A stretch of DNA of 64,000 nt from an uncultured bacterium. Lineage in GTDB: Bacteria > Nitrospirota > JACRHL01. Shown piece after piece: positions 1,760 through 25,871 of this stretch. Within the stretch, counting starts at the first letter, position 1. Every line of letters starts with the position of its first letter. The notes under the pieces are model-generated. The model was not told the origin of the DNA and did no database searches. It worked only from the letters and a program-made list of their open reading frames with translations. Where the stretch lies: the NCBI GenBank assembly GCA_965371175.1, contig CBDUXI010000003.1, positions 20,493 to 84,492 of the forward strand, given 5' to 3'. A program made the position numbers and the translations under genes.

Positions 1760-2223
1760 AGAAGGTGACGTTGCGGGAGCGGCTGAAGTCCGTGCTCACC
1801 ATGGGAGAGTCTCCCAGAAAGCTGGCGCTGGCCTTTGCGGTCGGGGTGCTGATTGCCTTTACCCCCCTGTTCGGGGTGCATACCCTGATGGCGGTGGTGG
1901 CCGCGTGGATGTTTCGGCTGAACCCCATGGCCCTGTTTGCAGGGGCGTTTATCACCAACCCGTGGACGGTTGTGCCGATTTACGGGGCCTGTCTGTGGCT
2001 GGGCATTGAGTTATGGCCCCCGGCGCAGGGTCTGCCTCCCCTGCAACTTTCTGATATCAGTCTGACGGCGTTTCTGACCCAGTTGAAGCCGTACCTGATG
2101 CCGCTGGTGGTGGGAACGGCTGTTGCGGGGATCGTATGCGCCATGATCGGGTATGTGGTGGTGGTGCGGCTGGTGACGAATTACCGGCGTCGTCCGGAAC
2201 CGCAACAGGCGACTTCGGACTAA
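1756..2223 (+). CDS. DUF2062-family membrane protein
   Basis: Start overlaps the thiL stop by 4 bp. ALAFAVGVLIAFTPLFGVHTLMAVVAAWMFRLN is the DUF2062 signature. Hydrophobic throughout. Confidence 0.6.
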   Translation: MKKVTLRERLKSVLTMGESPRKLALAFAVGVLIAFTPLFGVHTLMAVVAAWMFRLNPMALFAGAFITNPWTVVPIYGACLWLGIELWPPAQGLPPLQLSDISLTAFLTQLKPYLMPLVVGTAVAGIVCAMIGYVVVVRLVTNYRRRPEPQQATSD

Positions 2224-2231
2224 AATCGCGT

Positions 2232-4388
2232 CTACTCGTCAGCCAGGCGGGTATTGACCCACTGCTCCGCCGCAAGGAAGCCGCCGCTGGCCTGGTCCAG
2301 AGCGCGGGCGGTTCCGGTCAAGGCCTCCCGGGCTTGTTGCACATCATCCGGGCTGCTGTCACCACCGCCGAAGACGGGGTCCAGCCCGGTGTAGAGGGTC
2401 ACCATGATGTCGTAAAGTGTGTGGGCCATTTCCCAGTCACGCTGGAAATTCGGATCGGGTGTGGTGGTGCCAAATTCGGTTACCTGTTTTTTCAGCACAT
2501 CGGCCAGTTTACCTAGCGGGCTGCCCTGCCGATCCACGGCCACCTGGGCAAGCTCCATCAGCTTGGGCAGGAACGACGTTGAGATTCTGGGTGGCAGCGC
2601 AAGGCAGGTGGTCAGGGCTTCCTCCAGACGTCGGGGGCTTTCCTCGTCGTGGTCGGTTACCAGGGCTACACGGGAGAGCGCAAACAGGGCGCCTGCCTTG
2701 ATCTCCGGTCCCACGGTACCTTCCTCGTACAGGTCTGCCGCATCGGTCAGGGTTTGATAGGCTGCCTCCGACTCCCCCTGGGCCAGTTGTATTTCCCCCA
2801 GATAGGTGGCGGCCTGGGCCGCAAACGCCCGGTTTTTGACGGCACGCAGGAGTGGCAACGCTTCTTCAAAGCTTTCCCGGGCTGCGTCCAGATCGCGGTC
2901 CTCGAACTGCAACAGGCCCAGGTGGTAACCGACGGAGCTTGCGCCAAATTGCTCACCGATTTCACGGAAGGTGGCAAGGGCCGCGATAAACTTTGCCTTG
3001 GCTGCCTCCCGGTCGCCCAGGCGCACGTACAGAAGGCCTGCGTAATCCTGCGCCAGCGCCACTTCATGGAACCGGTCCACCTCTTCACCGGCGGCAATAC
3101 CTGCACTCATCCATGCAAGCCCTTCGGATATCATGCCCCGGTCGGTAAACAGATGAAACAGGGTCAGGGAAAAATGCAGTACCAGTTGGCTGTCTTCCTC
3201 CACATCGACGCCGTCCTGTTGCATCCGCGTCACCGCCCACGAGAAAGCGGCACGCAGATTGACCCACTCCTGCGTCATATAGCGGAGCGCCTCGCTCAGC
3301 TTGCCCTCGTCCATCATGTTTTTGCATTCGTTGACCATCTGGTGCAGGTGCATGGCCACCTGTTCGCGGTAGGCCTCGGCACGGTTTCCCGTCACGGCCT
3401 GCGCGTATTCACGGACCGCAGCATGGAGGTAGTGGCGCTCTCCCGCCACCTCGCACAGCCCGGTTTTGATCAATAATGCCGCCGCTTCCTCCCAATCGCC
3501 GCCATAGGTGGCGGACAGGGTGACGCCTGTGGCACCGCCGACAAAGCCGTGGAGCAGACCCATGAGCCGGATGGCCTCTTCGTTCAGGTCGTCACCGGCG
3601 ATGGCCAGGGCCAACCGGAGTCCGTGAGGAAGGTCGACGCCGTCTGCCAGCGGACAACTATCAAACCCTTCCTCAATTAAGTGGGTCCAGCGCGGCGGGC
3701 GGCACCAGGTGCTGGTGAGGCGAATGGCCAGCGGGTTGCCATCGAGTTTGACGAGTACATCGGCCAGCGCCGTATCGTCCTGTTCCGGGCTGGTGCTGAC
3801 TGAATCGGGCAAGTGAGCGCAAAAGACGTCAAACGCGTCGTTATCCGGCAACGCTCCCAGTGTGTATCCGGGGGTATCGGCAAGCGGCGCGCGGCTGACA
3901 ATCAGGTGGTGTACGCTGTCCACATTGCCAAACCGTTCAAATAGAAAGGCGCGTATCTCTGTTGCCTTATGGGCGGCCATTTCGTCCATCTGGTCCCAGA
4001 TTAACAGTACTTTGCGACCCGCAAGGGTTTCCTCCAGGGGGCGGGTTTCGTTCAGTCTGAAGGCGAGTACCAGGGTGCCCATGAGCGATGCGACTTCCCC
4101 GGCGCCGTCCATATTCAGATAAAATACGCCGTGGGGGAACAGTCCTTTTTCGAGGGCCTTGTGGCCGACCGCGCGGCACAATTCCGACTTGCCGATCCCG
4201 GCGGGACCCGTCAGATGGCTGACCCGCTCCTGCGTAAGCACCTTCAGCACGGCTTCGATGTCCGTATCACGGCCGCAAAAGGCACGACTGACGGGGCGCA
4301 GGTTGTGAGGGATTGGGCTGTTCATGTCTGTTCCTGGACGTCTGAATTTTAAAATGGGGCTGCGGGCAGCCTGATCCCGTATCGGCAC
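2232..4388 (-). CDS. STAND-class NTPase (NB-ARC/NACHT-like P-loop) with C-terminal TPR repeats; no recognisable N-terminal effector or DNA-binding domain
   Basis: Walker A GPAGIGKSE about 50 aa from the N-terminus. Walker B VLLIWDQMDE. The C-terminal half has repeated TPR-like helices (AQDYAGLLYVRLGD, AATYLGEIQLAQGESEAA). Alternative start at 4325 (MNSPIP). Confidence 0.7.
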   Translation of the reverse strand: MPIRDQAARSPILKFRRPGTDMNSPIPHNLRPVSRAFCGRDTDIEAVLKVLTQERVSHLTGPAGIGKSELCRAVGHKALEKGLFPHGVFYLNMDGAGEVASLMGTLVLAFRLNETRPLEETLAGRKVLLIWDQMDEMAAHKATEIRAFLFERFGNVDSVHHLIVSRAPLADTPGYTLGALPDNDAFDVFCAHLPDSVSTSPEQDDTALADVLVKLDGNPLAIRLTSTWCRPPRWTHLIEEGFDSCPLADGVDLPHGLRLALAIAGDDLNEEAIRLMGLLHGFVGGATGVTLSATYGGDWEEAAALLIKTGLCEVAGERHYLHAAVREYAQAVTGNRAEAYREQVAMHLHQMVNECKNMMDEGKLSEALRYMTQEWVNLRAAFSWAVTRMQQDGVDVEEDSQLVLHFSLTLFHLFTDRGMISEGLAWMSAGIAAGEEVDRFHEVALAQDYAGLLYVRLGDREAAKAKFIAALATFREIGEQFGASSVGYHLGLLQFEDRDLDAARESFEEALPLLRAVKNRAFAAQAATYLGEIQLAQGESEAAYQTLTDAADLYEEGTVGPEIKAGALFALSRVALVTDHDEESPRRLEEALTTCLALPPRISTSFLPKLMELAQVAVDRQGSPLGKLADVLKKQVTEFGTTTPDPNFQRDWEMAHTLYDIMVTLYTGLDPVFGGGDSSPDDVQQAREALTGTARALDQASGGFLAAEQWVNTRLADE

Positions 4389-4531
4389 CCCGCGAGGTCT
4401 CCTTTACGGTGGAGCCCGATTGCCACGTGCAACACCTTGTTCGTCAAAAACACGACATGGTAGCATGACGTATGTAGGGCGGCGCACGCATTTAGCGTGT
4501 GTGAGCGGTTTACCCTCTGTAAGGAGACAGC

Positions 4532-4762
4532 GTGGAAGACATCAACATGTCGGAAAAATTTCGCAGCGGGTGCAAAAAGTTCGGGATTACCGATGATATC
4601 GTCGAGGCGGCGCTGACGCGCAGTGCCCTCACCCCGGAAGAGTTACTGACCATCGACACCACCACCTCGGACCGCAATTTCAAGGTGTCTTACCTGAACA
4701 AGGCGGGCGAGAAGAAGTGGATTCACCTGTTCATGGTGGTCCCCAAAGCCGCCGTCGCGTAG
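4532..4762 (+). CDS. Hypothetical 76-aa protein
   Basis: GTG start preceded by AAGGAG at -12. Divergent from the STAND gene. No recognisable family. Confidence 0.35.
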   Translation: MEDINMSEKFRSGCKKFGITDDIVEAALTRSALTPEELLTIDTTTSDRNFKVSYLNKAGEKKWIHLFMVVPKAAVA

Positions 4763-4784
4763 GCGGCGGATATTACGGCACCGG

Positions 4785-5019
4785 CTTCGTTGCTGTTCGG
4801 AAAAAAACACTCAACGTAGCACGCTACGCCTCTCGTTTTTCCCCTTCGCGCGCCTCGCATCTGCCGCAATCTCCACCGCCTCCCCGGCAGCGGATATGCT
4901 GCCATCTCCTTCGTTGCTGCTTGTGGAAAAATCCTCGACGTAGAAGACTACGCCTCCGGTTTTTTCTCCGCGCGCGCCTCGGATATGACAACATCTCCAC
5001 CGCCTCCCCTGATTGTCAT
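4785..5019. repeat. Imperfect tandem direct repeat, two units of about 105-115 bp at roughly 80% identity
   Basis: Unit 1 about 4785-4884 and unit 2 about 4908-5019 align: cttcgttgctg...ggaaaaa...cgacgtag...ctacgcctc...ttttt...cgcgcgcctcg...atctccaccgcctcccc. Confidence 0.6.
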
Positions 5020-5027
5020 TCCCGCAT

Positions 5028-5047
5028 ACGCGGGAATCCAGAAGGGG
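5028..5047. repeat. Palindrome ATTCCC-N8-GGGAAT (attcccgcatacgcgggaat), REP/dRS3-like hairpin element
   Basis: Perfect 8-bp inverted repeat with a 4-nt loop. Flanked by tgtc...ccagaa. Only one copy in this window. Confidence 0.45.
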
Positions 5048-5213
5048 TCACGCCGGGTGCCGGTTCAGCGCCCGATCATGTGGACACAGTGTCTTGCCGT
5101 GGTTTTCATGCCACAGGCCTGGTGATGGCCGGGAACTGGATTCCAGGCTTTCGCGGGAATGACCAAAAGAAGGGGTGAAGGCAGGGCGGTCAACCGCCCC
5201 ACGAAATCCGCAG

Positions 5214-6575
5214 CTAGTTATTGAGCCCGGCCAGGGGGGCCGGGATGCGTCCGCCACGGGCGATCAGGGCGGCGGAAGAGCCGGAATGGACCGGCATCAC
5301 CGGCGCTTCGCCCAGCAGCCCGCCAAAGCGCACCATGTCGCCCACTTTCCGGCCCGGTGCCGGGATCAGCCGCACCGCCGTGGTCTTGCGGTTGATGACG
5401 CCGATGGCGGCCTCGTCGGCAATGATGGCCGAGATGGTTTCCGGGGGCGTGTCGCCCGGCACGGCAATCATGTCCAGCCCCACGGAACAGACGGCAGTCA
5501 TGGCCTCCAGCTTGTCAATGGTCAGCGCCCCTTCCGCTGCGCGGCGGATCATGACGGCATCTTCACTGACCGGGATAAACGCGCCGGACAGCCCCCCCAC
5601 GTGGCTGGAGGCAAACGCACCGCCTTTTTTTACCGCATCGTTCAACATGGCAAGCGCCGCGGTGGAGCCGTGGGTGCCCACCTGGGCCAGCCCGATGCGC
5701 TCCAGAATTTCCCCCACGGAATCCCCCACCTTGTCGGTGGGCGCAAGGGACAAATCCAGAATACCGAACGATACCCCCAGGCGGCGGGACAGCTCCCTGC
5801 CCACAAGCTCCCCTGCGCGGGTGATCTGGAAGGCGGCTTTTTTGATGATGGAGGCCACCTCTCCCAGATCGGCGTCCTCTGCGCCGGTGAGTGCCCGGGC
5901 CACCACGCCGGGGCCGCTGATGCCCACATTAAGGCTGGTTTCCGGCTCGCCGGTACCGTGAAAGGCACCCGCCATGAACGGGTTGTCCCCCACGCAGTTG
6001 GCAAACACCACCAGCTTGGCGCAAGCGATGCCGTTTTCATCTTTGGTGCGCCGGGCCGCCTCCACAATCACCTGCCCCATGGTGGCGATCACATCCATGT
6101 TGATGCCCGCATGGGTGGAGGCCACGTTCACGCTGGCGCACACACGCCCGGTTTCGGCCAACACGGCAGGCAGGGCGGCAAGAAACGTCTCTTCTGCGCG
6201 GGTGGTGCCTTTTTCCACCAGGGCGGAAAAACCACCGATGAAATCCACCCCCACGTCTGCCGCCGCTTGGTCCATGGCCTGACCCAGCTGCACGAAGTCA
6301 TCTTCGTTTGGGTCTGCCATCAGGTTGGCCACCGGGGTGACCGCCACCCTGGCGTTGACGATGGGCACGCCGTATTCACCGGAAATTTTTTCGGCTTCGG
6401 GCTTTAAATTTTTGGCCTTGCCACGGATGCGTGCGCCCACTTTCTCTGCCACCTGGCGCGGGTCGGGACCCGCGCAATCTTGAAGGTTGAGGCCCATGGT
6501 GACCGTGCGGATATCCAGGTGGGCCTCCTGGACCATGCCGAGGGACTCAAAAATTTCCTGTATGGTCAGTGACAC
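5214..6575 (-). CDS. UPF0210 / DUF711 family protein
   Basis: Motifs [32 protein letters not shown] and GGRIPAPL match the conserved COG2848 family. About 450 aa. Confidence 0.85.
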
Positions 6576-8881: not shown

Positions 8882-9715
8882 CTATTGTCCTGTTGAAGTT
8901 GCAGGGGCGCTTTGGGGCGTATCGTCCAGCCAGCTTTTTTGGCCGCACACGCAGATAAACGGGCTGTCCGTGCCGCCCAGTACGGTCAGGTGAGCCCGGG
9001 TTAACACGTCTTGGTCGGTGCCGGTATCGCCGTAAGCTTCCCGCTCTTCGTCAAACACCGCCTGCTGGAGGGTTTCCACCGCCTCGCTCGGTTTTACGCC
9101 GATAAAGTGCTCTTTTAAAATAGGGTCGTCCATGGCGGCAAGTTTGGCGGCGTTTCTTCTCACTAACAGCTTGATGGCCATGGAAGAGCCGGATTTGAAG
9201 GCCCCGGCGCGGATGCACTTGCGGCGGGCTTTGCCGGGTTTGACGGTCCATTCTTCAATGGCCGCTTTGGAATGGGCCATGGCCCCGTAGGTGACCAGTT
9301 GGTGGGCCAGATTAAAGAAGGTGGAGTACGACACGATGGTGCTGCAGTCGAAGCGTTCTTCCAACAACGGGAGCGGATCGAACGACAGCCGGTTGGAGTT
9401 TTCAATTTGCTCCGTTGTGGCCATATGCGCCGGGAACCCCACATCGCCCATGGCGGTGGCGTAAAACAGGGTGTCAAATTTTTTCCCCGAGGCCTTTTCG
9501 ATATCGTCCCAACAGGCCGGGTCGGAAATGTCGCCAAACAGCACGGTATCGGCGCCGTCGATGGCCAACTCCTCATTCTTTCTGCCGTACCAGACGACGG
9601 TGATGTGGGCCGCGTTGCCAAACTTCTGCCGTACTGCATTGATGGCGGCGCTGCCCGCCACCCCTGTGCCACCGATTACCAGATACCGTTTCATTCTTCG
9701 TTTTGCCCTTTGCAC
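8882..9715 (-). CDS. NAD(P)-binding Rossmann-fold oxidoreductase, possibly enoyl-reductase-like
   Basis: N-terminal YLVIGGTGVAGSAAI dinucleotide-binding motif. Y-x6-K (YGAMAHSK) resembles FabI/FabL-type enoyl reductases. Likely start at 9694 (MKRYLV). Confidence 0.45.
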   Translation of the reverse strand: MQRAKRRMKRYLVIGGTGVAGSAAINAVRQKFGNAAHITVVWYGRKNEELAIDGADTVLFGDISDPACWDDIEKASGKKFDTLFYATAMGDVGFPAHMATTEQIENSNRLSFDPLPLLEERFDCSTIVSYSTFFNLAHQLVTYGAMAHSKAAIEEWTVKPGKARRKCIRAGAFKSGSSMAIKLLVRRNAAKLAAMDDPILKEHFIGVKPSEAVETLQQAVFDEEREAYGDTGTDQDVLTRAHLTVLGGTDSPFICVCGQKSWLDDTPQSAPATSTGQ

Positions 9716-12318: not shown

Positions 12319-12456
12319 CTGCATGAAAAATAACAAATTACCAATCTGAGGCCATTTGACCGATTTCCAACTGCCTCGTATGCTTGAATCTGGTGGTGGT
12401 ATCACCGATAAGAGATATGGGGAGTGGTTTTTCCGCTTGGGGTGGGAGGAGGTTTG

Positions 12457-14199
12457 ATGGCCAATTCACGACCCGGAAAAGGTGGCGCAGGCAGCGAGCA
12501 CACCGTCAGGGACAGCGGTGCCAAGGGCGGCGCGGTCGATTACGAGCGGGAAATCCAGAAGCTGCGGCTTCAGTTGCAGTCCATGGAGTCGGAACTCAGG
12601 CACCTGTTCCCGGTGCGTAACCAGCTCGATCAGGCCTACACCCAGAATCAGAAGCTCGCCAGCGTACTGGAGGAATCCCGCGCCCGGATCGAGGCGTTGC
12701 GGGAAGAGGTGGAAAAGCTCTCCCTGCCCCCCAATCCGTACGGATTTTTCTCCTCCATCAACGACGACGACGGCACCATCAACATCTATGTGTCGGGTCG
12801 CAAGATGAAGGTGCACGTGCACCCGGAAATTGATGTGAACAGCATGCAGCTGGGTCAGGAACTGGTGCTCAACGAGGCGTTTAACGTGGTGGAGGTCAAA
12901 GGCTTCCAGGTGCAGGGCGAGGTGGTGTACGTCAAGGAAGTGCTGGACGACGACCGGGCCATTGTTTCCTTGCGCGCAGATGAAGAGCGGGTGGTGCGCT
13001 TTAGCGAGCGGCTCAAAGCCGAGCACCTGCGGGTGGGCGACCATGTGCTGCTGGACACCCGCTCCGGCTATCTGCTGGAAAAGCTGCCCAAGTGCGAGGC
13101 CGAAGAACTGGTCATCGAGGAAGTGCCCGACGTGGATTACACCCGCATCGGCGGGCTGCGGGATCAGATCGAAGAGATCAAGGACGCGGTGGAGTTGCCG
13201 TTTTTGCACCCGGAACTGTTTCGCGAACATAAGCTTTTGCCCCCCAAGGGGATTTTGCTGTACGGCCCTCCGGGGTGCGGCAAGACCCTGATCGCAAAGG
13301 CTGTGGCCAACGCCATCGCCCAGAAGGTGAGCTCCCAGCCGGATAAGGAGCGGCGCAGCTTCTTCTTGCACATCAAGGGGCCGGAACTGCTGAACAAATA
13401 TGTGGGCGAGTCGGAACGCAAGATCCGCGAGATTTTCCAGAAGGCCAAGGAAAAAGCCGACCGGGGCGTGCCGGTGATCATCTTCTTTGACGAGATGGAC
13501 TCCCTGTTCCGTACCCGTGGTGCGGGTATTTCCTCGGACATGGAATCGACCATCGTGCCCCAGTTTCTGGCCGAAATCGACGGGGTGGAGCGCCTGCGCA
13601 ACGTGATTGTCATTGGTGCCACCAATCGGCAGGATTTGATCGACCCGGCTGTGCTGCGCCCCGGACGGCTGGATATCAAAATCCGGGTGGACCGTCCGGA
13701 CCGGGACGGCGCACGGGATATTTTTCTGAAATATCTCACCACCGATCTGCCGATTCACGCGGGTGCCCGGATCAAAAAAGGGGAAAAACCGGAAAGTGTG
13801 GTGGCCCGCATGATCGATCAGGTGGTGGACGACATGTATGCCGATACCGAGGAAAACGAGTTTCTGGAGGTGACCTACGCCAACGGCGAGCGGGAAGTTT
13901 GCTACTTTAAGGATTTTGCCTCCGGCGCGATGATCGAAGGCATTGTGGCCCGAGCCAAAAAATACGCCATCAAGCGCGCCATCGAAACCGGCGAAAAAGG
14001 GATCAAGGTGGACGATCTGCTCGCGGCCATGCGGCAGGAGTATCGGGAAAACGAGGACCTACCCAACAACACCAACCCGGACGACTGGGCCAAGATTGCC
14101 GGTAAAAAGGGCGAGCGGATCGTCAACATCCGCACCATTATCGACCACGCTCAGAACGGCAAGGAAATCACCCCCGTCTCGGCCGGGCACTACCTCTAG
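12457..14199 (+). CDS. mpa: Proteasome-associated AAA+ ATPase (ARC/Mpa)
   Basis: N-terminal coiled coil, an inter-domain region, one AAA module ([15 protein letters not shown]), and a C-terminus ...GHYL comparable to the actinobacterial GQYL. Start at 12457 has GGAGG at -11. Confidence 0.88.
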
Positions 14200-14233
14200 G
14201 GTTGCCGCCCTAAGGCGCGTGGAAATTTAGATC

Positions 14234-15718
14234 ATGTCTGTTCGCCCCTTTTTTTTTGGCAGTGAAACCGAGTTCGGTATTTCCTGTCTGGACCCGCGCG
14301 AACAGAATCACATTACCAATTCATTGAGGCTGGTCAGCTTTCTGCCCAACCCGGCATCTCCCGATTGCCTGTGGGATTACGAGGGGGAAAACCCTCTCCT
14401 TGATCTGTTCGGCAACCGCATGGACGGGGAGCGGGAAGACCCGGACCCGTATGCCAACCGGTCCCTCAACAAACCGCTGGCCAACGGCGGGCGGCTGTAT
14501 GTGGACGGGGCGCACCCGGAATATTCATCCCCCGAGGTGACCGATCCGCTGGATCTGGTGCGCTACGAGAGCGCAGGCGAGCAGATTGCCGATGCCTGCC
14601 GCAAAAACGCCGACCGGGCGCTGGGGCAGGCCCATTTCTGCCTGCACAAGAACAACTCGGACGGCAAGGGCAACAGCTACGGCTATCACGAAAATTACCT
14701 GGTCCCCAAATCCGTGTCGGTACACGCTCTGATGGAGGCGATCATTCCGTTCTTGATTACCCGCCAGATATTCTGCGGCGCAGGCAAGGTGGGCACCGAG
14801 AACGGGCGGGAAAAAACCCACTATCAACTCTCGCAGCGGGCCGACTTTTTTGAAACCCTGGCCGAACTCAACACCATGGTTAGAAGGCCGTTGTTCAACA
14901 CCCGCAACGAACCCCACGCCGATCCCAAAGAATGGCTGCGCCTGCACGTGATTCCGGCGGATTCCAACATGAGCCAGGTGTCCACCTTCCTGAAAGTGGG
15001 TACCCTGGCCCTGGTGCTGCGTCTGGTGGAAGAAGGGGCGCTGGAAAATGTGCCCCGGATCAAAAAACCGGTGGCGTCGTTCGGGGCGATTTCGCACGAT
15101 CTGACCATCAAAAAACCGGTGGCGATGGACAACGCCGCCCCCATGACCGCAGTGGAGATTCAGCGAATTTATCTGGAGGCGGCAAAAAAATATGCGGACC
15201 AGAATCCGCTGCCCGGCAGCTTTCCGCAAGTGCTTGTGCGCTGGGAGGAATCACTGGATGCTCTGGAGGTCGATCCGTTCGGGCTGTCCCGCACGGCCGA
15301 CTGGGCCATCAAATACCGCATGATTGATACTTATCTGGCGGCGAAAGGGCTGGACTGGAGCGCAGCGCAGGCCAAGGCCATGGACCTTCAGTATCACGAC
15401 ATCAATCCCGAAAAGGGGTTGTACCACACCGTGCGTGCGCGGGGTATGGTGGAGGAACTGGTGACACAGGAGGAAATTTCCGCCGCCATGAGTACGCCGC
15501 CGGAAGATACCCGGGCATGGTTCCGGGGGACGTGTCTTGCCCGGTTTGGCAAAGCGGTTTACGGTGTTAGCTGGGGGTCGGTGCTATTGCATACGGGGGA
15601 GAAGGTGAGTCGCATCCCCACCCTGAACCCGTTTCGGGGGACCAAGGCCATCGCCGGACCTCTTTTGGACAGTTGCTCCACACCGGAGGAACTGATCGAT
15701 AAACTGGAGCAGGGATGA
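14234..15718 (+). CDS. dop: Pup deamidase/depupylase Dop (glutamine-synthetase-like PafA/Dop family)
   Basis: 494 aa. GSETEFG N-terminal motif of the PafA/Dop family. Longer than the downstream paralogue, consistent with the Dop-loop insertion. Position between mpa and pup matches actinobacterial synteny. Confidence 0.75.
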   Translation: MSVRPFFFGSETEFGISCLDPREQNHITNSLRLVSFLPNPASPDCLWDYEGENPLLDLFGNRMDGEREDPDPYANRSLNKPLANGGRLYVDGAHPEYSSPEVTDPLDLVRYESAGEQIADACRKNADRALGQAHFCLHKNNSDGKGNSYGYHENYLVPKSVSVHALMEAIIPFLITRQIFCGAGKVGTENGREKTHYQLSQRADFFETLAELNTMVRRPLFNTRNEPHADPKEWLRLHVIPADSNMSQVSTFLKVGTLALVLRLVEEGALENVPRIKKPVASFGAISHDLTIKKPVAMDNAAPMTAVEIQRIYLEAAKKYADQNPLPGSFPQVLVRWEESLDALEVDPFGLSRTADWAIKYRMIDTYLAAKGLDWSAAQAKAMDLQYHDINPEKGLYHTVRARGMVEELVTQEEISAAMSTPPEDTRAWFRGTCLARFGKAVYGVSWGSVLLHTGEKVSRIPTLNPFRGTKAIAGPLLDSCSTPEELIDKLEQG

Positions 15719-15734
15719 ACAGAGCAGGTAGTCA

Positions 15735-15929
15735 ATGAGCCAGAAGAAAAAAACATCCAGCAAACCGCAGGAAAAAGAGACAGATAAAGAGAGCGCCAAG
15801 GCCTCCGTCACCGAAAAGGGGGAGGAACTTGCCGAGGACATGGACAAACTCATCGATGAGATTGATGATGTGCTCGAAAAGAACGCCGAAGAGTTTGTCA
15901 AAAACTATGTGCAGAAGGGGGGCCAGTGA
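15735..15929 (+). CDS. pup: Prokaryotic ubiquitin-like protein Pup
   Basis: 64 aa, highly acidic and low-complexity. C-terminus ...EEFVKNYVQKGGQ matches the Pup consensus. The stop overlaps the prcB GTG start. Confidence 0.85.
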   Translation: MSQKKKTSSKPQEKETDKESAKASVTEKGEELAEDMDKLIDEIDDVLEKNAEEFVKNYVQKGGQ

Positions 15930-16711
15930 GCCACAACCCGTTCGGTCCCGCACTCGGTTCCAGCTTTTACGATTATCTGGTCGCGGAGCGCCCCGACCTG
16001 CTGCCGATGGCGCGGGTCAGCGCAGGGGATACCGGCACCCTGCCGGTAAACCACGGCACCACGGTGCTGGCCATGACCTATGCCGACGGGGTGGTCGTGG
16101 CCGGTGATCGCATGGCCTCGGACGGCATGTCGGTTTCCAGCCGCCGCATGGACAAGGTGATTGCCGTCGATAATTATTCGGCGGTGGCCATTTCCGGCGC
16201 TGTGGGTCCATGCCTCGAAATGGCCAAGCTGTTTCTGACCGAGCTGGAATATTACGAAAAAATCGAGGGCCGGTCTCTATCTCTGGCGGGCAAGGCCAAC
16301 AAACTGGGGCAGATGGTGCGCGGCAACCTGCCACTGGCCATGCAGGGGCTGGCGGTGATCCCCCTGTTTGCCGGATACGACCTGGAGCGTACCTGCGGCC
16401 GGGTGTTCAAATACGATGCGGCGGGTGGCCGCAACGAAGAGCCGGATTTTGTCACCACCGGCTCCGGTGGCGGACACGCACGGGGGGCGCTCAAAAAAAG
16501 TTTTCAGGAACAGTTGTCCGAGGCGGATGCCGTCAAGGTGGCGCTGGACGCCCTGTTTGACGCGGCGGAAGAAGATCTGGCCACGGCAGGCCCCGATCCG
16601 ATCCGGGGGATTTATCCTTCGGTGCTGGTCATCGACCGGGACGGTATCCGTAACTTGCCCGATGATGACGTGGCGGCCCACTTTCAGGGCGGCCCCAAGG
16701 GGAAACGGTAG
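15926..16711 (+). CDS. prcB: 20S proteasome beta subunit with propeptide
   Basis: Propeptide followed by HG|TTVLAMTY, placing the catalytic Thr1 after autoprocessing. Ntn-hydrolase fold. Confidence 0.88.
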   Translation: MSHNPFGPALGSSFYDYLVAERPDLLPMARVSAGDTGTLPVNHGTTVLAMTYADGVVVAGDRMASDGMSVSSRRMDKVIAVDNYSAVAISGAVGPCLEMAKLFLTELEYYEKIEGRSLSLAGKANKLGQMVRGNLPLAMQGLAVIPLFAGYDLERTCGRVFKYDAAGGRNEEPDFVTTGSGGGHARGALKKSFQEQLSEADAVKVALDALFDAAEEDLATAGPDPIRGIYPSVLVIDRDGIRNLPDDDVAAHFQGGPKGKR

Positions 16712-16713
16712 CC

Positions 16714-17397
16714 ATGTCTGCACCGTACTACGTCTCTCCCGAACAGCTCATGCGCGACAAGGCGGAGTTCGCCAAGGCGGGCATTGCCCGCGGGCGCGCC
16801 ATCGTGGTCATGCGGACGCAGGAGGGCGTCCTGTTTGTGGCCCACAATCCGGGGGTGTCCCTGTACAAGATATCGGAAGTCTACGACCGCATCGGCTTTG
16901 CCGGAGCGGGCAGGTACAGCGAGTTTGAGGCATTAAGGAAAGCCGGGGTGCGCCATGCGGATGTGACCGGCTACAGCTATAGCCGGGAGGACGTGACGGC
17001 CAAATCGCTGGCCAACGGCTATTCCCAGATGCTGGGGGATGCTTTCGCCCGGGAAATAAAGCCCATGGAAGTGGAGCTTGTGGTGGCCGAAGTGTCCGCA
17101 GCCCCTGAAGATGATGAGATCTATCGCATCTCCTTCGACGGTTCCATCTCCGGTGAGGGCCACTTCAGCGTGGTGGGCGGGGATGCCGACCGGGTGCTGG
17201 GGGCACTGTCCAAACAACACAGCCAAGTGGCAGAGATGGGGCCGTCCCTGATCCAGTGCAAAACCGCACTGGAGGCCGGGGGGGAAGATAACCTGACCGC
17301 CGCAGACCTGGAGGTGGGACTGATTGAACGGGGCCGGGCTGGCCGCGCCTTCCGCAGGCTCGATAGCGCAGAGGTTATCGCTCTGCTTTCGGGGTAA
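16714..17397 (+). CDS. prcA: 20S proteasome alpha subunit
   Basis: 227 aa. Proteasome alpha-type sequence (YVSPEQLMRDKAEFA...). Immediately follows prcB. Confidence 0.85.
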   Translation: MSAPYYVSPEQLMRDKAEFAKAGIARGRAIVVMRTQEGVLFVAHNPGVSLYKISEVYDRIGFAGAGRYSEFEALRKAGVRHADVTGYSYSREDVTAKSLANGYSQMLGDAFAREIKPMEVELVVAEVSAAPEDDEIYRISFDGSISGEGHFSVVGGDADRVLGALSKQHSQVAEMGPSLIQCKTALEAGGEDNLTAADLEVGLIERGRAGRAFRRLDSAEVIALLSG

Positions 17398-17402
17398 CCG
17401 CC

Positions 17403-18776
17403 GTGCGCCGCCGAATTCTGGGATTGGAAACGGAATTTGGCCTGACTTTTTTCCCCAGCGGAAAATCGTACCTGCCGATGGAAAAAGTCATCGGCTATCT
17501 GTTTGAAGAAGTCATCCCCACCGGCTGGCCGTCCAATGCCTTTCTGGTCAACGGCGCCCGGTTTTATCAGGACACCGGCTGCCATCCGGAATATGCCACC
17601 CCGGAGTGCGCCACGGTCAAGAGCGTGGTGGCCCACGACAAGGCGGGAGAGCGGCTGCTGGAGTCGCGTCTGGCTCCGGCCCAGGCCCGGCTGGCCGAAG
17701 AGGGGTTTGTGGGCACCCTGTACGCCTATAAAAACAACACCGATACCATGGGCAACACCTACGGCTGCCACGAAAATTATCTGGTGGACCGCAAGCTCGA
17801 TTTCTGGCGGCTGGCGGAGCATATGATTCCGTATTTTGTCACCCGCCAGATGTATACCGGCGCGGGCAAGGTATACAAGGCGGCGGGCCAGAGTGGCTTT
17901 GCCATTTCCCAGCGGGCCGTCCATATTCACGAGGCATCCTCCTCCTCCACCACCAGCTCGCGCAGCATCATCAACACCCGGGACGAGCCCCACGCCGACG
18001 CGGAGCGGTTCCGGCGGCTGCACATCATTGCGGGCGACTCCAACATGAGCGAGTACACCACCTACCTGAAAATGGGCATCACCAGCGTGCTGCTCACCGC
18101 CATGGAGGAGGGGGCCATGTTTCCCATCCTCACGCTGGACGATCCGGTGGATGCCCTGCGCCAGGTTTCTGTGGACCTGCGGATGAAACAGCCGCTACTG
18201 CTTGCCAGCGGCGGAAAGATGACCGCTCTGGAGATACAGTGGGCCTACCTGGAGGCGGCGGAGCGGCATTTTTCCACTTTGGAAAAAGGGGTGTTCCGCA
18301 ACCTGCTGACCCAGTGGCGGGAAGTACTGGATGCGCTGGAGACCAATCCGAAACAGCTGGCCGACCGGGTGGACTGGATCGCCAAGCGGGAGTTGATGCG
18401 CGCCTTCATGCGGCGGGACGGGTGCGACTGGTCCGACCCGCGCATTGCCATGATTGATTTGCAATACCACGATATCGACCGCAGCCGGGGGCTGTACTAC
18501 CTGCTGGAGCGGGACAAAAAAATGGTGCGGGTGGTTGCCGAGTCCGAGGTGACCCGCGCCCTTCACCACCCCCCTGCCGACACCCGCGCCCACATCCGCG
18601 GGCAGTTTATCCGCTTTGCCAAGGAGGCGGGCCGCCCGTACAGCGTGGACTGGACCTACCTGAAGCTGTCCGGTTATTTCGAGGAGACAATCCTCTGCAC
18701 CGACCCGTTTGTCAGCCGCGACCCACGGGTGGAAGAGCTGGTCACCACCGCCACCGGTGATTTGTACGATATTTAA
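17403..18776 (+). CDS. pafA: Pup--protein ligase PafA
   Basis: 457 aa. LGLETEFG motif. Paralogue of the dop product but shorter (no Dop loop). GTG start. Confidence 0.78.
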   Translation: MRRRILGLETEFGLTFFPSGKSYLPMEKVIGYLFEEVIPTGWPSNAFLVNGARFYQDTGCHPEYATPECATVKSVVAHDKAGERLLESRLAPAQARLAEEGFVGTLYAYKNNTDTMGNTYGCHENYLVDRKLDFWRLAEHMIPYFVTRQMYTGAGKVYKAAGQSGFAISQRAVHIHEASSSSTTSSRSIINTRDEPHADAERFRRLHIIAGDSNMSEYTTYLKMGITSVLLTAMEEGAMFPILTLDDPVDALRQVSVDLRMKQPLLLASGGKMTALEIQWAYLEAAERHFSTLEKGVFRNLLTQWREVLDALETNPKQLADRVDWIAKRELMRAFMRRDGCDWSDPRIAMIDLQYHDIDRSRGLYYLLERDKKMVRVVAESEVTRALHHPPADTRAHIRGQFIRFAKEAGRPYSVDWTYLKLSGYFEETILCTDPFVSRDPRVEELVTTATGDLYDI

Positions 18777-20123: not shown

Positions 20124-20335
20124 GTGACTTCCATTCTCGCTGGAGGAACCATGGATTCACTCTACCACTAAATCCACGGGTATGGCCGGGTTTGTTGAGC
20201 TTGCCCCTGCACGCCGAGTACACTCGCTGCCACGGTATTTTGATCACGGAGCGACGGGCGGGGCGCCTGTCTGAAAGGGATAAGCAAGTGAAGCGCAAGG
20301 ATGATGGCGGCCACATTTCCCGGCGGTTGCAGGAG

Positions 20336-20782
20336 ATGGGTGTGGACCTGCCCGATTGCCCCGCCCCGCTGGGGGCGTATGTGCCCGCCCTGGCCGTGGG
20401 CGACTTGATCTACACCAGCGGCATGTTGCCGCTTACGGACGGAGATCTGGCCTACGTCGGACCCGTTGGCTCCGTACACACTGTGGACGCGGGCGCAGCG
20501 GCGGCGAAGCTGTGCGCACAAAACGCGGTGGCGGCCATTGCCGGACTGCTGGGCGGTGTGGCGGGGCTGGACCGGGTCACGCGGGTCGTGCAGGTGACCG
20601 GCCACATCCTGTGCCTGCCCGACTTTGCCGAGCAGCCGGCGGTGCTGAACGGCGCTTCCGAGTGGCTGGCCGAACTGTTTGGAGAACAAGGTCGGCATAC
20701 CCGCCTGGCCCTGGGCGCTCACGCCCTGCCCAAAAACGCCACGGTGGAGTTGGCAATGGTTGTCCAGGTTGCCACCCACTGA
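20336..20782 (+). CDS. ridA: RidA/YjgF-family enamine/imine deaminase
   Basis: YjgF/chorismate-mutase-like fold motifs (PAPLGAYVPA, RVTRVVQVTGH, ARLALGAHALPKNATVEL). Start ambiguous (20288 GTG or 20336 ATG). Confidence 0.7.
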   Translation: MGVDLPDCPAPLGAYVPALAVGDLIYTSGMLPLTDGDLAYVGPVGSVHTVDAGAAAAKLCAQNAVAAIAGLLGGVAGLDRVTRVVQVTGHILCLPDFAEQPAVLNGASEWLAELFGEQGRHTRLALGAHALPKNATVELAMVVQVATH

Positions 20783-21788
20783 CTTTGGCAATACCGCCGA
20801 CCGGCTGCTTGTGGCCCTGTCCGCAGCGCACGGGGCGTTTGTTCCCGGCAGCCGCCTTGGCAAGGAGCTGGGGGTATCACGCACCGCCGTGTGGAAACAG
20901 GTCCGGTCGCTCAAGGCGGAAGGGTATCTGATTGAATCCCGCCCCCGGCAAGGGTACCGGCTGACCGGCAGGCCCGACGCCATCTCCCGCAGAGAGCTTG
21001 CGGCACAATTTGATACCCGCTGGCTGGGGCGGCATCTGGTGGTGCTGGAACAGGTTGATTCCACCAACCGGTACGGCATGGAGGACGCGTCGTTGCCCCA
21101 CGGTACGGTGGTGGTGGCCGGTCGCCAGAGTGCGGGTCGCGGGCGGCTGGGGCGGAGTTGGGAAACCCCGCCGGGCACGGTACCGTTTTCCGTGGTGCTG
21201 AGCCCCCAATCACCCCCGGAGCGTCTGCAGTTGATCACCCTGGCCACGGCGGTGGGGATGGCGGACGGGATTTTCGAGGCGACCGGCATCGACGTGGAAA
21301 TCAAATGGCCCAACGACCTGCTGGTGGGCGGCAAAAAAATCGCCGGCATCCTGACCGAAGCGCGCACCGACCCGGATCGGGTGGTGCGGGCGGTGGTGGG
21401 CGTGGGGCTGAATATTGCCACCCGGAAAAAGGATTTTCCCGCTGACGTGCGTGCACACGCCACCTCTCTGGCCGTGGCCTCCGGGGACAGCACGCCGTTG
21501 TTGTCGGTACTCGGGCAGGTGCTGGGCCACCTGGAGCGGGTGTATGACGAAGTGCTGACCGGTGGGGCGGATGAAATATCGGCCATGCTGGCCCGTTACC
21601 GGGACCGTTGCACCACCATTGGCCTTGCGGTCACGGTGACCGACAGAGACGGCCAGCCCCACACGGGTACGGCAGTGGGCGTGGACGACAACGGGGCGTT
21701 GCTGGTGGAAGGGCCGAACGGGGTGACCACGCCTTTTTATTCGGGGGATGTGACCTTGGCAAAGGCCAGCCCGGAGGCGGGCAGATGA
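20769..21788 (+). CDS. birA: Bifunctional biotin--[acetyl-CoA-carboxylase] ligase / biotin operon repressor
   Basis: N-terminal winged HTH (SRLGKELGVSRTAVWKQVRSL) and the BPL catalytic core (GRQSAGRGRLGRSWETP). Start uncertain (20769 TTG or 20811 GTG). Confidence 0.8.
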   Translation: MPPTDFGNTADRLLVALSAAHGAFVPGSRLGKELGVSRTAVWKQVRSLKAEGYLIESRPRQGYRLTGRPDAISRRELAAQFDTRWLGRHLVVLEQVDSTNRYGMEDASLPHGTVVVAGRQSAGRGRLGRSWETPPGTVPFSVVLSPQSPPERLQLITLATAVGMADGIFEATGIDVEIKWPNDLLVGGKKIAGILTEARTDPDRVVRAVVGVGLNIATRKKDFPADVRAHATSLAVASGDSTPLLSVLGQVLGHLERVYDEVLTGGADEISAMLARYRDRCTTIGLAVTVTDRDGQPHTGTAVGVDDNGALLVEGPNGVTTPFYSGDVTLAKASPEAGR

Positions 21789-23020: not shown

Positions 23021-23071
23021 GCGTAAAGCCCGCCTACAGAAACTGCCCATTTGGTGCATCTCCTCAGCCAT

Positions 23072-24178
23072 TTAAAACGAGAAGGCCCATTGTGCGGCGG
23101 CTTCGTTGTAGCTGCCGTCGAAATCATCGTCGATGGCGCGGTACTCGGCTTTGAGTGCGGTGCGATAGTCGATGTCGAAGCGTATGCCAACCACGGTTAC
23201 GGTGGTTTCCCGGTCGACTGCCGGGGTGGTGACGCCGATGGCATCGAAATACGGGTCACTTTCCGCGTCCAGCGTGCTGTAGCGTACATATGGCATGACC
23301 TGCTCTTTGACCCGGTAGCCCAACTGGGTGTACCAGCCCACGGTATCCGTGCTGACGCTCGCCAGATTTTCATGTTGCCAGGCGTAGTATTCGCCCAGGA
23401 ACTCCACCCGGTCCGACAGGTAGGCCACATCCACCCCCCAGATGATCTGATCGATTTCGTCGTCCAGCGGGCCGCCCGTATCGGTGATCAGCACGGTGCC
23501 TGTCTGCCCGAACAGGCCGACTTGCAGGCCTTCCAGGGCGGCGGGGCTGAACGACAGGTTGGCGGAAACGGCCTTTTGGTTATCCGGGTCGCTGCCGCTG
23601 CCGGGGTCGAGTTCCAGCAACTCGGGTGTGACGCTCAGATCTCCGGAGAGCGCTGCGCCGTTGCCGAACATCACCCCCAACCTCACGTTGCCTGCGTCGG
23701 TGGAAAACCGGCTGTCCCACCACAGACCGACCATGTGCATCGGCAGGACCCCGTGCTCATCCTCGAATTCAAGGAAAAACGGTCGGCCGATCGTGGTATG
23801 CAGCTGGGCGCCGTGGTGGTAGGCCAGGTTCCAGTAGCCCAGCAGGTTATGAAAGCGCCCGGCCCGCACCTTGTGGTGGTTGTTCAGGGCGTAGCTGATT
23901 TGCAGCCGTTCCAGATCGGTGATGGCCTCCCCGTCGTCCAGTTCGGTGACCAGTTCCGCCAGCATGTCCATGCGGTCGCTGAGCTGCTCGGCGACGTAGA
24001 AATCCAGATGCCCCAGAGAAAATCCGTTGTTGCTGCCGCCAGTGGCCCCACCCATTTCGGTGGCTGTATAGGAGACGTCGGCAAAGCCGTTCAACTCAAA
24101 GGCGTGGGCTGTGCCCGGGCCCGTCAGCCAGAAAACGAACGCGGCAGCCAGTATCCAGGCTGTACTCGGTCTGTTCAT
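23072..24178 (-). CDS. Outer-membrane porin, phosphate-selective porin O/P family
   Basis: Signal peptide, Gly- and aromatic-rich beta-strand pattern, and a C-terminal ...WAFSF outer-membrane sorting signal. Confidence 0.65.
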   Translation of the reverse strand: MNRPSTAWILAAAFVFWLTGPGTAHAFELNGFADVSYTATEMGGATGGSNNGFSLGHLDFYVAEQLSDRMDMLAELVTELDDGEAITDLERLQISYALNNHHKVRAGRFHNLLGYWNLAYHHGAQLHTTIGRPFFLEFEDEHGVLPMHMVGLWWDSRFSTDAGNVRLGVMFGNGAALSGDLSVTPELLELDPGSGSDPDNQKAVSANLSFSPAALEGLQVGLFGQTGTVLITDTGGPLDDEIDQIIWGVDVAYLSDRVEFLGEYYAWQHENLASVSTDTVGWYTQLGYRVKEQVMPYVRYSTLDAESDPYFDAIGVTTPAVDRETTVTVVGIRFDIDYRTALKAEYRAIDDDFDGSYNEAAAQWAFSF

Positions 24179-24379
24179 CTGCCACCCCCTCCATAGGATT
24201 TTTACCGGGCCGGTACGGCCGCGATAAGTTCTTTTTGGTTATGACCTGCTTGGCTCAAGGCGCGTGCGCCTGTCGATTATGTATTTCAGGGAATTATTCT
24301 TCCCAGTCTTGGAATACGGCGCTCCCTTGTTGCACCTGACCGGGCGGGGCGCAACACCGTTGTAGGGTATAGCAACCAA

Positions 24380-24791: not shown

Positions 24792-25871
24792 TTAGCCTGG
24801 CTGGGGGACGGGTTGGTCCGTTGCAGACAGACGCGCAAGGATTTCCCTCGTCATCTCTTCCATGGATACCTGTATGGCCCCCGCGTCCGCGCTCGCCTCC
24901 GGCATCTGACAGACCAGACAGTCATCCGGCGTCTGGGTGAGTACGACCCCTCCCTGTCCAATCAGCGCACGGGTGCCCGCTACGCCGTCTTCCCCCATGC
25001 CGGACAGGACCACGCCGATGCCGTCTGCGGGGCAGGCTGCGGCCAGGCTGTGTAACAGCCCGTCGGCCGACGGGCTGGCGGCCGGGTTGTCCGCATCGGC
25101 CATGTAGACGGTTAAACCCGCCGCCTCTTGTTTGACCTCAATGTTTTTTCCACCCTGCCCCACCAGCACGGTGCCAGGGGTGAGGCGCTCTTCCTGCCCG
25201 GCCTCCCTGACGGGGAGCGCACACACGGCATTCAGCCGTTCTGCAAGCAGGCTGGTATACGCTTCCGGCAACGTTTGCGCCACCACCACCGCGGCCTCCA
25301 GGTTTTCGGGCAGCGAGGCCACCAGGCGCATCAGGGTATATGGGCCGCCCGCGCCCGCGCACAGCCCGATCACCTTCATTCCGTTGCTGTTGCCGTTGCC
25401 GTTTGGCGTATGGGGAGGTGGTGTCGGCGCGGAATCCATGAGCATGGAAATCAACGCTTTACGGGTTGCCCCGCCTCCCACGGCGCGGACTTTTTCGATT
25501 AATCTCGGCGCCAGCTTACGCATGGCTAGGGAACTACCCGATTTGGTCTTGGGCAGGTAACCGACCACGCCTTCCGCAAAGGCGGCAAGCACGTCCGTGC
25601 CCCCTTGATGGTTTGGCGTACCCAGGCCAATGACCGGAGTGGGGAACAGTTTCATCAGTTCACGCAGCATGTTGGCGCACGCCCCATCGGGCACTTCCAG
25701 ATCCATGATAATCACATCTGGTGTCAGGTTGCGGGTCATGTGCAGTCCCTGGTCGGGCTCCGTCGCCTGCCCCGTTATTTCGATATCGGGCGCACCGGCC
25801 AACATCTGGACGATGGCGGTGCGTACAACGGCGTTGGCATCCACAATCAGGACACGTATTGGTTTGGCCAT
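24792..25871 (-). CDS. cheB: Chemotaxis response regulator, protein-glutamate methylesterase
   Basis: N-terminal REC domain (IRVLIVDANAVVR...IIMDLEVP) and a C-terminal CheB methylesterase domain. Confidence 0.85.
   Translation of the reverse strand: MAKPIRVLIVDANAVVRTAIVQMLAGAPDIEITGQATEPDQGLHMTRNLTPDVIIMDLEVPDGACANMLRELMKLFPTPVIGLGTPNHQGGTDVLAAFAEGVVGYLPKTKSGSSLAMRKLAPRLIEKVRAVGGGATRKALISMLMDSAPTPPPHTPNGNGNSNGMKVIGLCAGAGGPYTLMRLVASLPENLEAAVVVAQTLPEAYTSLLAERLNAVCALPVREAGQEERLTPGTVLVGQGGKNIEVKQEAAGLTVYMADADNPAASPSADGLLHSLAAACPADGIGVVLSGMGEDGVAGTRALIGQGGVVLTQTPDDCLVCQMPEASADAGAIQVSMEEMTREILARLSATDQPVPQPG

Follow-up and report, generated by a model that had tools for sequence, protein, structure and literature searches.

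Comparison of gene order and composition identified a divergent gene pair in the 64-kb stretch of DNA analysed here (the window) as fixed in one small Nitrospirota group and passed on vertically, not as a mobile insertion. One gene encodes a STAND NTPase and the other an orphan protein of 76 aa. It is tentatively proposed that the two form a clade-specific module in which the STAND nucleotide switch would pass its signal to a separate protein, the most plausible one being that of 76 aa; we regard this reading as quite possible. The features concerned, with positions numbered from the start of the window, were as follows.

2232–4325, minus strand: gene of the STAND NTPase, read from the ATG at 4325 and encoding 697 aa (ORF, orthologue starts, AGGAA, dN/dS, AF2 model)
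3390–4325, minus strand: NOD module (NBD, helical domain and winged-helix domain), aa 1–312 (invariant columns, AfsR NOD profile match, Foldseek)
3132–3389, minus strand: helical arm, aa 313–398, with the conserved motif EWxNLRAAFxWA (alignment and AF2)
2658–3131, minus strand: TPR sensor array, aa 399–556 (Pfam TPR_MalT and TPR_12, AF2 helical hairpins, Foldseek)
2232–2657, minus strand: C-terminal helical cap, aa 557–697, six helices, no known family
4380–4406, minus strand: candidate sigma-28 (FliA)-like promoter of the STAND gene, TAAAGGAG-n12-GCCGATA, i.e. TAAAGGAG-n12-GCCGATAC
4436–4467, plus strand: conserved small-gene promoter, CTTGTTC-N13-CATGGTAGCATG, unique in the window
4521–4527, plus strand: Shine–Dalgarno sequence AAGGAGA of the small gene
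4532–4762, plus strand: gene of the 76-aa orphan protein, predicted alpha-alpha-beta-beta-beta fold, 31 invariant residues
4749–4996, no strand: 124-nt tandem duplication that follows the small gene, with a bidirectional terminator-like hairpin in each copy

The open frame of the STAND gene spans positions 2232–4388 on the minus strand and encodes 718 aa from a GTG at 4388, the length given in the preliminary description together with a Walker A motif about 50 aa from the N-terminus. The ORF coordinates were correct and the start was not. The ATG at 4325, which lies 21 codons 3′ of the GTG and has an AGGAA sequence 7 nt upstream, was the start in all 14 full-length orthologues, the extension from the GTG being used by none of them. 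The orthologue starts therefore indicate that the protein most likely comprises 697 aa, with Walker A about 40 aa from the N-terminus. The gene was present in single copy with a dN/dS of 0.17–0.19, and on its substitution pattern it is a real gene, not a chance ORF.

The product is a genuine STAND NTPase with a NOD module, an arm and a TPR sensor, and the initial assignment of a P-loop and TPRs was borne out by motifs, Pfam, the AfsR profile match and AF2/Foldseek alike. The NOD module carries a motif set of FxGR, Walker A, Walker B, sensor-1, GNPLAI and a winged-helix His. Walker A (GPAGIGKS, 4185–4208, minus strand) contains G40, G43, G45 and K46, all invariant among the 14 orthologues, and the orthologue alignment also showed invariance of the Mg-binding D111 of Walker B (LLIWDQMD, 3984–4007, minus strand), of R145 in sensor-1 (HHLIVSR) and of G196, N197 and P198 in the GxP motif (GNPLAI). 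The residue after the Walker B Asp was an invariant Gln (DQ, not DD or DE), so that ATP may be hydrolysed slowly or not at all. The MHD-like His of the winged-helix domain, the residue that contacts ADP in STAND proteins, is present in the window protein (YLHAAVRE) and was found in 10 of the 14 orthologues and was replaced by Pro or Glu in the other four; the strands of this domain were placed at aa 291–300 in the AF2 model (pLDDT 91.6, pTM 0.85). Pfam searches with the 718-aa ORF gave matches to nSTAND1, AAA_16, NACHT and NB-ARC over aa 35–148, nSTAND1 scoring 27.1 bits, which is exactly the Pfam cut-off, and to TPR_MalT and TPR_12 over aa 417–575.

No HTH, nuclease, protease, other enzyme or defence effector was found in the STAND protein by Pfam, NCBIfam, PADLOC, AlphaFold2 or fold search, in agreement with the preliminary description, which had reported neither an HTH nor an N-terminal nuclease or protease effector. 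Profile searches revealed no cryptic regulator domain, there was no HTH match in Pfam or NCBIfam at E values up to 1, and only about 15 residues precede the FxGR motif. A PADLOC scan of both proteins returned generic ATPase noise only (best E 0.0037). The last ~140 aa matched no family, as had been stated earlier for about 120 C-terminal residues; these do not form a separate domain, as six further helices extend the solenoid of the repeat array in the AF2 model. This cap is the least conserved part of the protein, yet it ends in the conserved motif ARALDxxSGGxxGAExW. A hidden effector domain was rejected, since a search with the C-terminal 141 aa alone recovered only designed helical repeats from the PDB and nothing from Pfam.

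The closest relatives of the STAND protein are AfsR and PH0952. A profile of the STAND family aligned with the NOD and TPR regions of AfsR (aa 6–317 and 440–574, E 5e-14), the SARP-NOD-TPR regulator of Streptomyces coelicolor (PDB 8k60, 8jke), which has the same P-x-L-P...FxGR lead-in, GxP and winged-helix motifs and, in the alignment, a Walker B that is likewise followed by a non-acidic residue. Identity between the two is only ~25 %, however, and AfsR possesses an N-terminal SARP DNA-binding module (OmpR-type wHTH and BTAD) that the window protein lacks. PH0952 was the best Foldseek match of the STAND model (E 4.5e-12 over 717 columns), with Apaf-1 at 5.9e-8 and Avs3 at 1.2e-6, and the TPR region resembled the TPR domains of LGN, Rap and NprR. 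The fused DNA-binding domain of the MalT/AfsR/LAL regulators, in MalT a C-terminal LuxR-type HTH, is absent from the window protein, whereas the NOD-arm-TPR order is shared. The next relatives, at ~25 % identity, also carry outputs (LuxR or XRE HTH, adenylate cyclase, Ser/Thr kinase or BTAD). The bacterial STAND ATPases characterised so far act, to our knowledge, either as transcription factors (MalT, AfsR, GutR) or in immunity, as sensors to which an effector is fused (Avs, bNACHT). The NOD-arm-TPR layout is also that of PH0952 from Pyrococcus horikoshii (PDB 6mfv). For STAND proteins of this type a closed ADP form with sensor-mediated autoinhibition has been described (PMC6468293), and the common layout implies that the window protein would behave in the same way.

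By analogy with the AfsR/MalT/PH0952 class, the STAND protein at rest would be a closed, ADP-bound monomer; binding of a ligand by the TPR sensor would lead to exchange of ADP for ATP and to multimerization. Because there is no fused output domain, the signal would have to be handed to a separate protein, for which the 76-aa protein is the best candidate, either as a recruited output or adaptor or as the sensed ligand.

The 76-aa ORF is a real gene and not a chance ORF, to judge from its conservation. It had been noted for a good Shine–Dalgarno sequence, and AAGGAG is indeed located 5 nt before the GTG start. It had also been described as belonging to no known family, and neither a sequence nor a fold relative was found: the protein had no match in Pfam, NCBIfam, PADLOC or PDB sequences, no fold relative and no viral structural relative. 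No recognisable effector, DNA-binding, membrane, toxic or enzyme signature was present, and no signal peptide was seen when the sequence was read by eye; a compact fold was predicted. The invariant residues include the motif TTTSxRNFxVxYxNxAGExKWxHLF. Its dN/dS was 0.11 (at dS 0.62–0.66), and its identity was 61–72 % where that of the STAND protein was 40–45 %; by these measures the small gene is under much stronger constraint than its neighbour. When 1.84 billion representatives were searched exhaustively with a profile of the small protein, only three to about four true clusters emerged; the local matches P0092 and P0093, inflated by Sushi and PPC repeats respectively, and the marginal match P0094 were rejected as homologues.

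In a set of 5.8 billion proteins the STAND family formed 14 clusters, each of them derived from MAGs of uncultured Nitrospirota, and the small-protein family formed seven. Both were restricted to one and the same clade, that is, Nitrospirota MAGs labelled Leptospirillia, Nitrospirales or Nitrospirae. A survey of the neighbourhoods showed the small gene to be conserved immediately beside every STAND homologue examined, in divergent orientation at all 13 independent loci. The preliminary description had placed the pair between housekeeping genes, which family matches confirmed, and had taken it for an accessory insertion, which the conservation of its surroundings contradicts. The order Lon-ThiL-DUF2062-STAND/small-DUF711-ACT-TrpE-Bcp was kept on both sides down to ~41–45 % STAND identity, the core-gene flanks were the same in at least nine lineages, and both GC and GC3 of the pair resembled those of the flanks. 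The repeat-rich spacer, read earlier as a sign of insertion, proved to be the 124-nt duplication, with its terminator-like hairpins at 4813–4830 and 4937–4954 between convergent genes. The duplication was absent in more distant relatives, in which 17 nt separate the end of the small gene from DUF711.

The intergenic DNA was otherwise unalignable between lineages and contained two conserved promoter islands, one for each gene. The candidate upstream of the STAND gene was the sole match to TAAA-N14-17-CCGATA in the window (0.14 expected), and its CCGA(T/C)A core was kept in place in 12 of 13 lineages. The sigma-28 consensus is TAAAGTTT-n11-GCCGATAA (PMC2859248), compared with which the spacer of the candidate is 12 nt instead of 11 and the −35 element is TCAAG or TAAGG in several lineages. 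A promoter of the sigma-28 (FliA) type appears to drive the STAND gene, an assignment made by consensus match only; a FliA/WhiG sigma factor gene is located in the window at 25900–26742. The promoter of the small gene consists of a −35-like TTGTTC (4437–4442) and an extended −10 TGgTAGCAT (4458–4466), the −10 lying within a 10/12 palindrome, and was kept in 10 of 13 lineages with TTGT(T/C)C. Its −35 matches that of sigma-70 at three of six positions and for this reason fails a strict sigma-70 scan, which found no promoter in the region 2100–5300. Readings of the conserved intergenic motifs as sigma-54, ECF or Cheo/LexA boxes did not fit by eye.

Within the two-gene module proposed here, the sigma-28-type promoter would link STAND expression to the motility/late-flagellar regulon, and the small gene would be driven by its own strongly conserved extended −10 promoter. 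The 76-aa protein, which co-occurs with the STAND protein in every genome examined, would have arisen along with it. An output-less STAND protein of the core genome that is always paired with a constrained orphan mini-protein would offer a tractable case for signalling via a separate partner, within the practical limit of a tiny family (~14 clusters) known only from uncultured Nitrospirota MAGs. The partnership, if true, would give a new small-protein fold its first function, and the sigma-28-type promoter is a concrete link to the flagellar regulon that is open to testing. A more specific version, which we regard as unlikely, is a split STAND system within the FliA (sigma-28) regulon of the clade, in which a free-standing 76-aa protein of previously unseen fold would replace the fused effector, either recruited by the ATP-bound oligomer or acting as the activating ligand. 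In such a system the STAND switch would be connected with the control of motility or lifestyle, and not with transcription-factor or immune functions.

The two genes might instead be functionally unrelated neighbours, the STAND-TPR protein being an ATP-gated scaffold or co-regulator with partners elsewhere and the 76-aa protein acting independently. Since the neighbourhood of the pair (~20 kb) is syntenic across the clade, adjacency alone is no special evidence for the small gene and could follow from regional synteny; both genes are monocistronic, each having a promoter of its own and facing a convergent gene, and effector-less NOD-TPR relatives exist elsewhere, for example P0035 and P0057 (genes of 124 and 111 aa were called beside the latter). 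The same reading is favoured by a close relative (L001) whose STAND allele differs by 15 % of residues and whose small protein is identical, giving no sign of co-variation. The STAND dS in this comparison of near-identical strains was 0.47, compared with 0.04–0.08 in the flanks; as dS rose together with dN, accelerated protein evolution or positive selection was rejected, and the substitution pattern is that of a recombinational allele replacement confined to the STAND gene. Against independence, two orphan families share the same narrow distribution and co-occur without exception in the 13 loci, the pair is still together at a locus (L006) where synteny breaks on the STAND 3′ side, and the two promoters stand back-to-back at a fixed spacing of ~50 nt in most lineages. 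On balance it seems doubtful that the two are mere neighbours.

The small gene could also be a regulated target, with the STAND oligomer activating the promoter at 4436–4467 via a separate DNA-binding protein or by direct contact with RNA polymerase. The precedent is AfsR, the closest solved relative: the small gene afsS neighbours afsR and is an AfsR target. The divergent layout, the conserved non-consensus promoter and the location of its −10 are compatible with such a role, as non-consensus, palindrome-bearing promoters are typical of activator or repressor control. Here, though, the small protein has no relationship to AfsS and its gene points away from that of the STAND protein, the STAND protein itself has no DNA-binding domain of any kind, and the conserved neighbourhood holds no candidate gene for a DNA-binding partner, which makes regulation of this type quite improbable.

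It is very unlikely that the STAND protein acts in anti-phage defence or abortive infection in the manner of Avs, with the small protein as a detached effector or guarded bait. In Avs proteins, too (e.g. Avs3, PDB 8dgc), a TPR-like sensor follows the STAND core; the Foldseek match to Avs3 was noted above. Recombinational allele swaps are common at immunity loci, and the replacement in the close relative was confined to the STAND gene. The N-terminus of Avs proteins, however, bears an effector such as a nuclease or protease, and their genes reside in variable defence islands, whereas the window protein has no effector domain and occupies a position among core genes that is fixed across deep divergence. 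It is a single-copy gene under ordinary purifying selection (dN/dS 0.19), its nearest relatives are signalling regulators and not Avs, and enzyme, membrane and toxin signatures were absent from the small protein, as was any viral structural relative. The defence setting implied by the preliminary description was likewise not supported, as there was no match to a PADLOC model and no defence-island context.

The pair also bears a likeness to BASS/Bell amyloid-signalling pairs, in which an NLR-like ATPase that lacks an effector and has a short N-terminus is encoded beside a small protein, and which require that the N-terminus of the NLR and the C-terminus of the small protein have a motif in common (bioRxiv 10.1101/2020.01.06.895854); it was rejected as such a pair, since no similarity was detected between the STAND N-terminus and the small-protein C-terminus (local alignment score 19, shuffle mean 18.4, sd 3.5) and Pfam did not identify a Bell domain in the small protein. 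As in RNPP/Rap-Phr systems, a TPR receptor is encoded beside a small ORF, and weak Foldseek matches of the TPR region to RapH, NprR and a plasmid Rap protein were obtained; those receptors have no STAND ATPase, however, and their small genes encode secreted pro-peptides, unlike the 76-aa protein with its lack of a signal peptide.

DUF2062 and DUF711 belong to the same syntenic region, so that adjacency by itself speaks as much for them as for the small gene. A metagenome scan for DUF711 returned 79 loci from unrelated phyla with ACT-DUF711 only, together with one locus that was already known.

ORF calling in the window gave a 718-aa ORF at 2232..4388(-), which encodes the STAND signalling ATPase, and a divergent 76-aa ORF at 4532..4762(+). 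In Pfam, P-loop STAND-type models (nSTAND1, AAA_16, NACHT and NB-ARC) matched aa 35-148 of the 718-aa ORF, nSTAND1 scoring 27.1 bits, exactly at the cut-off, and TPR_MalT and TPR_12 matched aa 417-575; no further Pfam domain was detected. NCBIfam added just partial TPR matches (AfsR and HaaT), and a PADLOC scan gave no credible match. Since all 14 full-length orthologues from a 5.8-billion-protein collection start at the ATG at 4325 (Met22 of the ORF), with AGGAA 7 nt upstream, the STAND protein is most likely 697 aa long. The small gene starts with GTG, 5 nt after AAGGAG, and its product had no Pfam match. Substitution rates place both genes under purifying selection (dN/dS 0.17-0.19 for STAND; 0.11 at dS ~0.62-0.66 for the small gene), and neither is a chance ORF.

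As read from the orthologue alignment and translations, the large protein (2232-4325(-)) appears to carry the full set of STAND motifs:

N-terminal region: FxGR, preceded by ~15 residues
Walker A: GPAGIGKS
Walker B: LLIWDQMD, with an invariant Asp and then an invariant Gln
Sensor-1: HHLIVSR
GxP motif: GNPLAI
Winged helix: YLHAAVRE, with the His in 10/14 orthologues

The AlphaFold2 model was confident (pLDDT 91.6, pTM 0.85) and began with an alpha/beta nucleotide-binding domain (NBD) and a helical domain; then came a winged helix, including its beta-hairpin, a long arm, ~8 helical hairpins and six more helices up to the C-terminus. Its first Foldseek match was the STAND-TPR protein PH0952 (6mfv, E 4.5e-12), with Apaf-1, Avs3 and the TPR proteins LGN, Rap and NprR among later matches, and the family profile matched AfsR (E 5e-14) across the NOD (NBD, helical and winged-helix domains) and TPR regions alike. 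The C-terminal 141 aa, searched as a separate profile, matched no Pfam family and solely designed helical repeat proteins; this is the least conserved part of the protein, yet it ends in a conserved motif, ARALDxxSGGxxGAExW. No HTH, enzyme or death-like module was found by Pfam, NCBIfam, PADLOC, AlphaFold2 or the C-terminal profile search and, with so few residues before FxGR, the preliminary description of the protein as effector-less was upheld. The anatomy is thus that of a complete NOD-arm-TPR STAND lacking an output domain. Outputs in the next relatives, signalling STANDs at ~25 % identity, were a LuxR or XRE HTH, a BTAD, an adenylate cyclase or a Ser/Thr kinase; a few of these relatives likewise had none. 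The protein is a new, divergent member of the known superfamily.

The highly constrained mini-protein is co-distributed with the STAND. Searches with tblastn and contig look-ups recovered the small gene divergent from STAND in all 13 independent loci (the window and relatives' loci L001, L016, L003, L009, L010, L006, L013, L014, L017, L018, L099 and L100). Sequence comparison places constraint on the small protein far above that on the STAND: the two proteins were 100 and 85 % identical, respectively, between L001 and the window, and the small protein retained 61-72 % identity in loci where the STAND had 40-45 %. Its 31 invariant columns are concentrated within TTTSxRNFxVxYxNxAGExKWxHLF. Searched exhaustively with a profile, 1.84 billion representatives yielded just three further clusters of the family; Sushi and PPC repeat proteins were rejected as homologues, their matches being inflated by repeats. 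At aa 44-64, the SDRNFKVSYLNKAGEKKW hairpin locally resembles the TDRNFRITYNLTAGQKYY hairpin that recurs in one retrieved protein (P0093, a bacterial pre-peptidase C-terminal domain protein), a likeness that is probably convergent and repeat-inflated. An NLR/Bell amyloid-pair model was excluded because the small protein and the STAND N-terminus share no motif.

The order Lon-ThiL-DUF2062-STAND/small gene-DUF711-ACT-TrpE-Bcp was kept in L001, L003, L009, L010 and L013, in which STAND identity to the window fell from 85 to 40 %, and extended into ThiSGE and Pup-proteasome genes in L001, L003 and L009. Flanks in L014 were as in the window, but the STAND match was partial; part of the order was visible on the shorter contigs L016, L099 and L100, and in L006 it was conserved solely on the small-gene side. 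GC (0.59-0.63) and GC3 (0.71) agreed with the flanks. The family is tiny and uncultured, the named source genomes being MAGs labelled Nitrospirae, Nitrospirota, Nitrospirales or Leptospirillia. By synteny, composition and source, the module thus belongs to the core genome, being specific to the clade yet passed on vertically; the accessory insertion proposed earlier was not borne out.

The L001 flanks were 97-98 % identical to those of the window at the nucleotide level, whereas STAND (10001-12094 in L001) had 83.9 % identity at 2232-4040 and 93.3 % at 4041-4325. Its dS was 0.47 versus 0.04-0.08 in seven genes nearby, and its dN/dS stayed at 0.19; accelerated protein evolution was therefore rejected. 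The pattern points to a recombinational allele replacement limited to STAND, the small gene being untouched.

The small gene and DUF711 converge on a 124-nt tandem duplication (4749-4996), each copy with an A-run/hairpin/T-run resembling a bidirectional terminator; this spacer was missing in distant relatives. The spacer is thus repeat-rich, as first described, but terminator-like hairpins between convergent genes are not evidence of insertion. Perfect short palindromes (e.g. ATTCCCGC-ATAC-GCGGGAAT) follow at 5001-5200, a stretch unalignable with L001, which is elsewhere 98 % identical, and 4749-5213 is a hypervariable spacer.

The 206 nt between STAND and the small gene could not be aligned between lineages apart from two islands, read as separate conserved promoters:

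4436-4467, + strand: island 1, CTTGT(T/C)C-N11-13-CATGKTAGCATG (N13 in the window)
4406..4380, STAND strand (-): island 2, TAAAGGAG-n12-GCCGATAC

Island 1, present in 10/13 lineages and once in the window, is the predicted small-gene promoter, with a weak -35 (TTGTTC) and an extended -10 (TGgTAGCAT); a strict sigma-70 scan missed it because the -35 matches 3/6. Island 2 is close to the sigma-28 consensus, TAAAGTTT-n11-GCCGATAA (PMC2859248), its putative spacer being n12 versus n11. It was the sole match to TAAA-N14-17-CCGATA in the 64 kb (0.14 expected), and its CCGA(T/C)A core was conserved in 12/13 lineages; where its distance to the STAND start was measured, the core lay 44-113 nt upstream. 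The window also encodes a FliA/WhiG sigma factor (25900-26742(-); 266.8 bits, cut-off 189.6), with cheB (24792-25871(-)) after it. A sigma-54-type -24/-12 element (TGGCATCCCGATTGCT, 26897-26912(-)) lies upstream of fliA, and a sigma-54 to sigma-28 flagellar hierarchy is suggested for the host. The small-gene 5' UTR (4473-4531(+)) opens with a stable hairpin, found at the same place in L003, L006, L009, L014 and L016 and in every lineage despite differing sequences, which may be an mRNA-stabilizing or regulatory stem-loop.

Distinctive of the locus are the fixed pairing of a STAND with an orphan mini-protein and possible sigma-28 control. On the model of the MalT, PH0952 and AfsR class (PMC6468293), the STAND would rest as a closed ADP-bound monomer, bind a ligand through its TPR sensor, exchange nucleotide and then multimerize; because no output is fused, its signal would have to pass to a separate protein, for which the 76-aa protein would be the likeliest candidate, as adaptor/output or as ligand. 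This picture of a STAND switch and its partner is favoured tentatively. The main rival, in which synteny is all that keeps the two together, is somewhat unlikely. It is improbable that the small gene is a regulated target, as in an AfsR/afsS-like model, there being no DNA-binding component. An Avs-like defence role, for which just the architecture and the allele swap speak, is very improbable given the core-genome position, the regulator-type relatives and the absence of an effector and of a PADLOC match.

Among other features of the window, a 277-aa ORF (8882-9715(-)) has no Pfam or NCBIfam family and is conserved at 65-72 % identity in all syntenic relatives; in L001, L003, L009, L010 and L013 the order continues past Bcp with an unannotated 265-277-aa gene. 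Further sizeable ORFs without such a family lie at 20168-21586(-) (472 aa), 23051-24196(+) (381 aa) and 30741-32960(+) (739 aa). A c-di-GMP-I riboswitch match (43369-43457(+)) scored 35.6 bits, barely over the Rfam gathering score of 35. Ordinary for this phylum are a sucrose synthase gene (28308-30701(-)) and the Pup-proteasome cluster (12424-18776(+)), which comprises an Mpa-type ATPase, Pup ligase/deamidase paralogues and the alpha and beta subunits of the proteasome.
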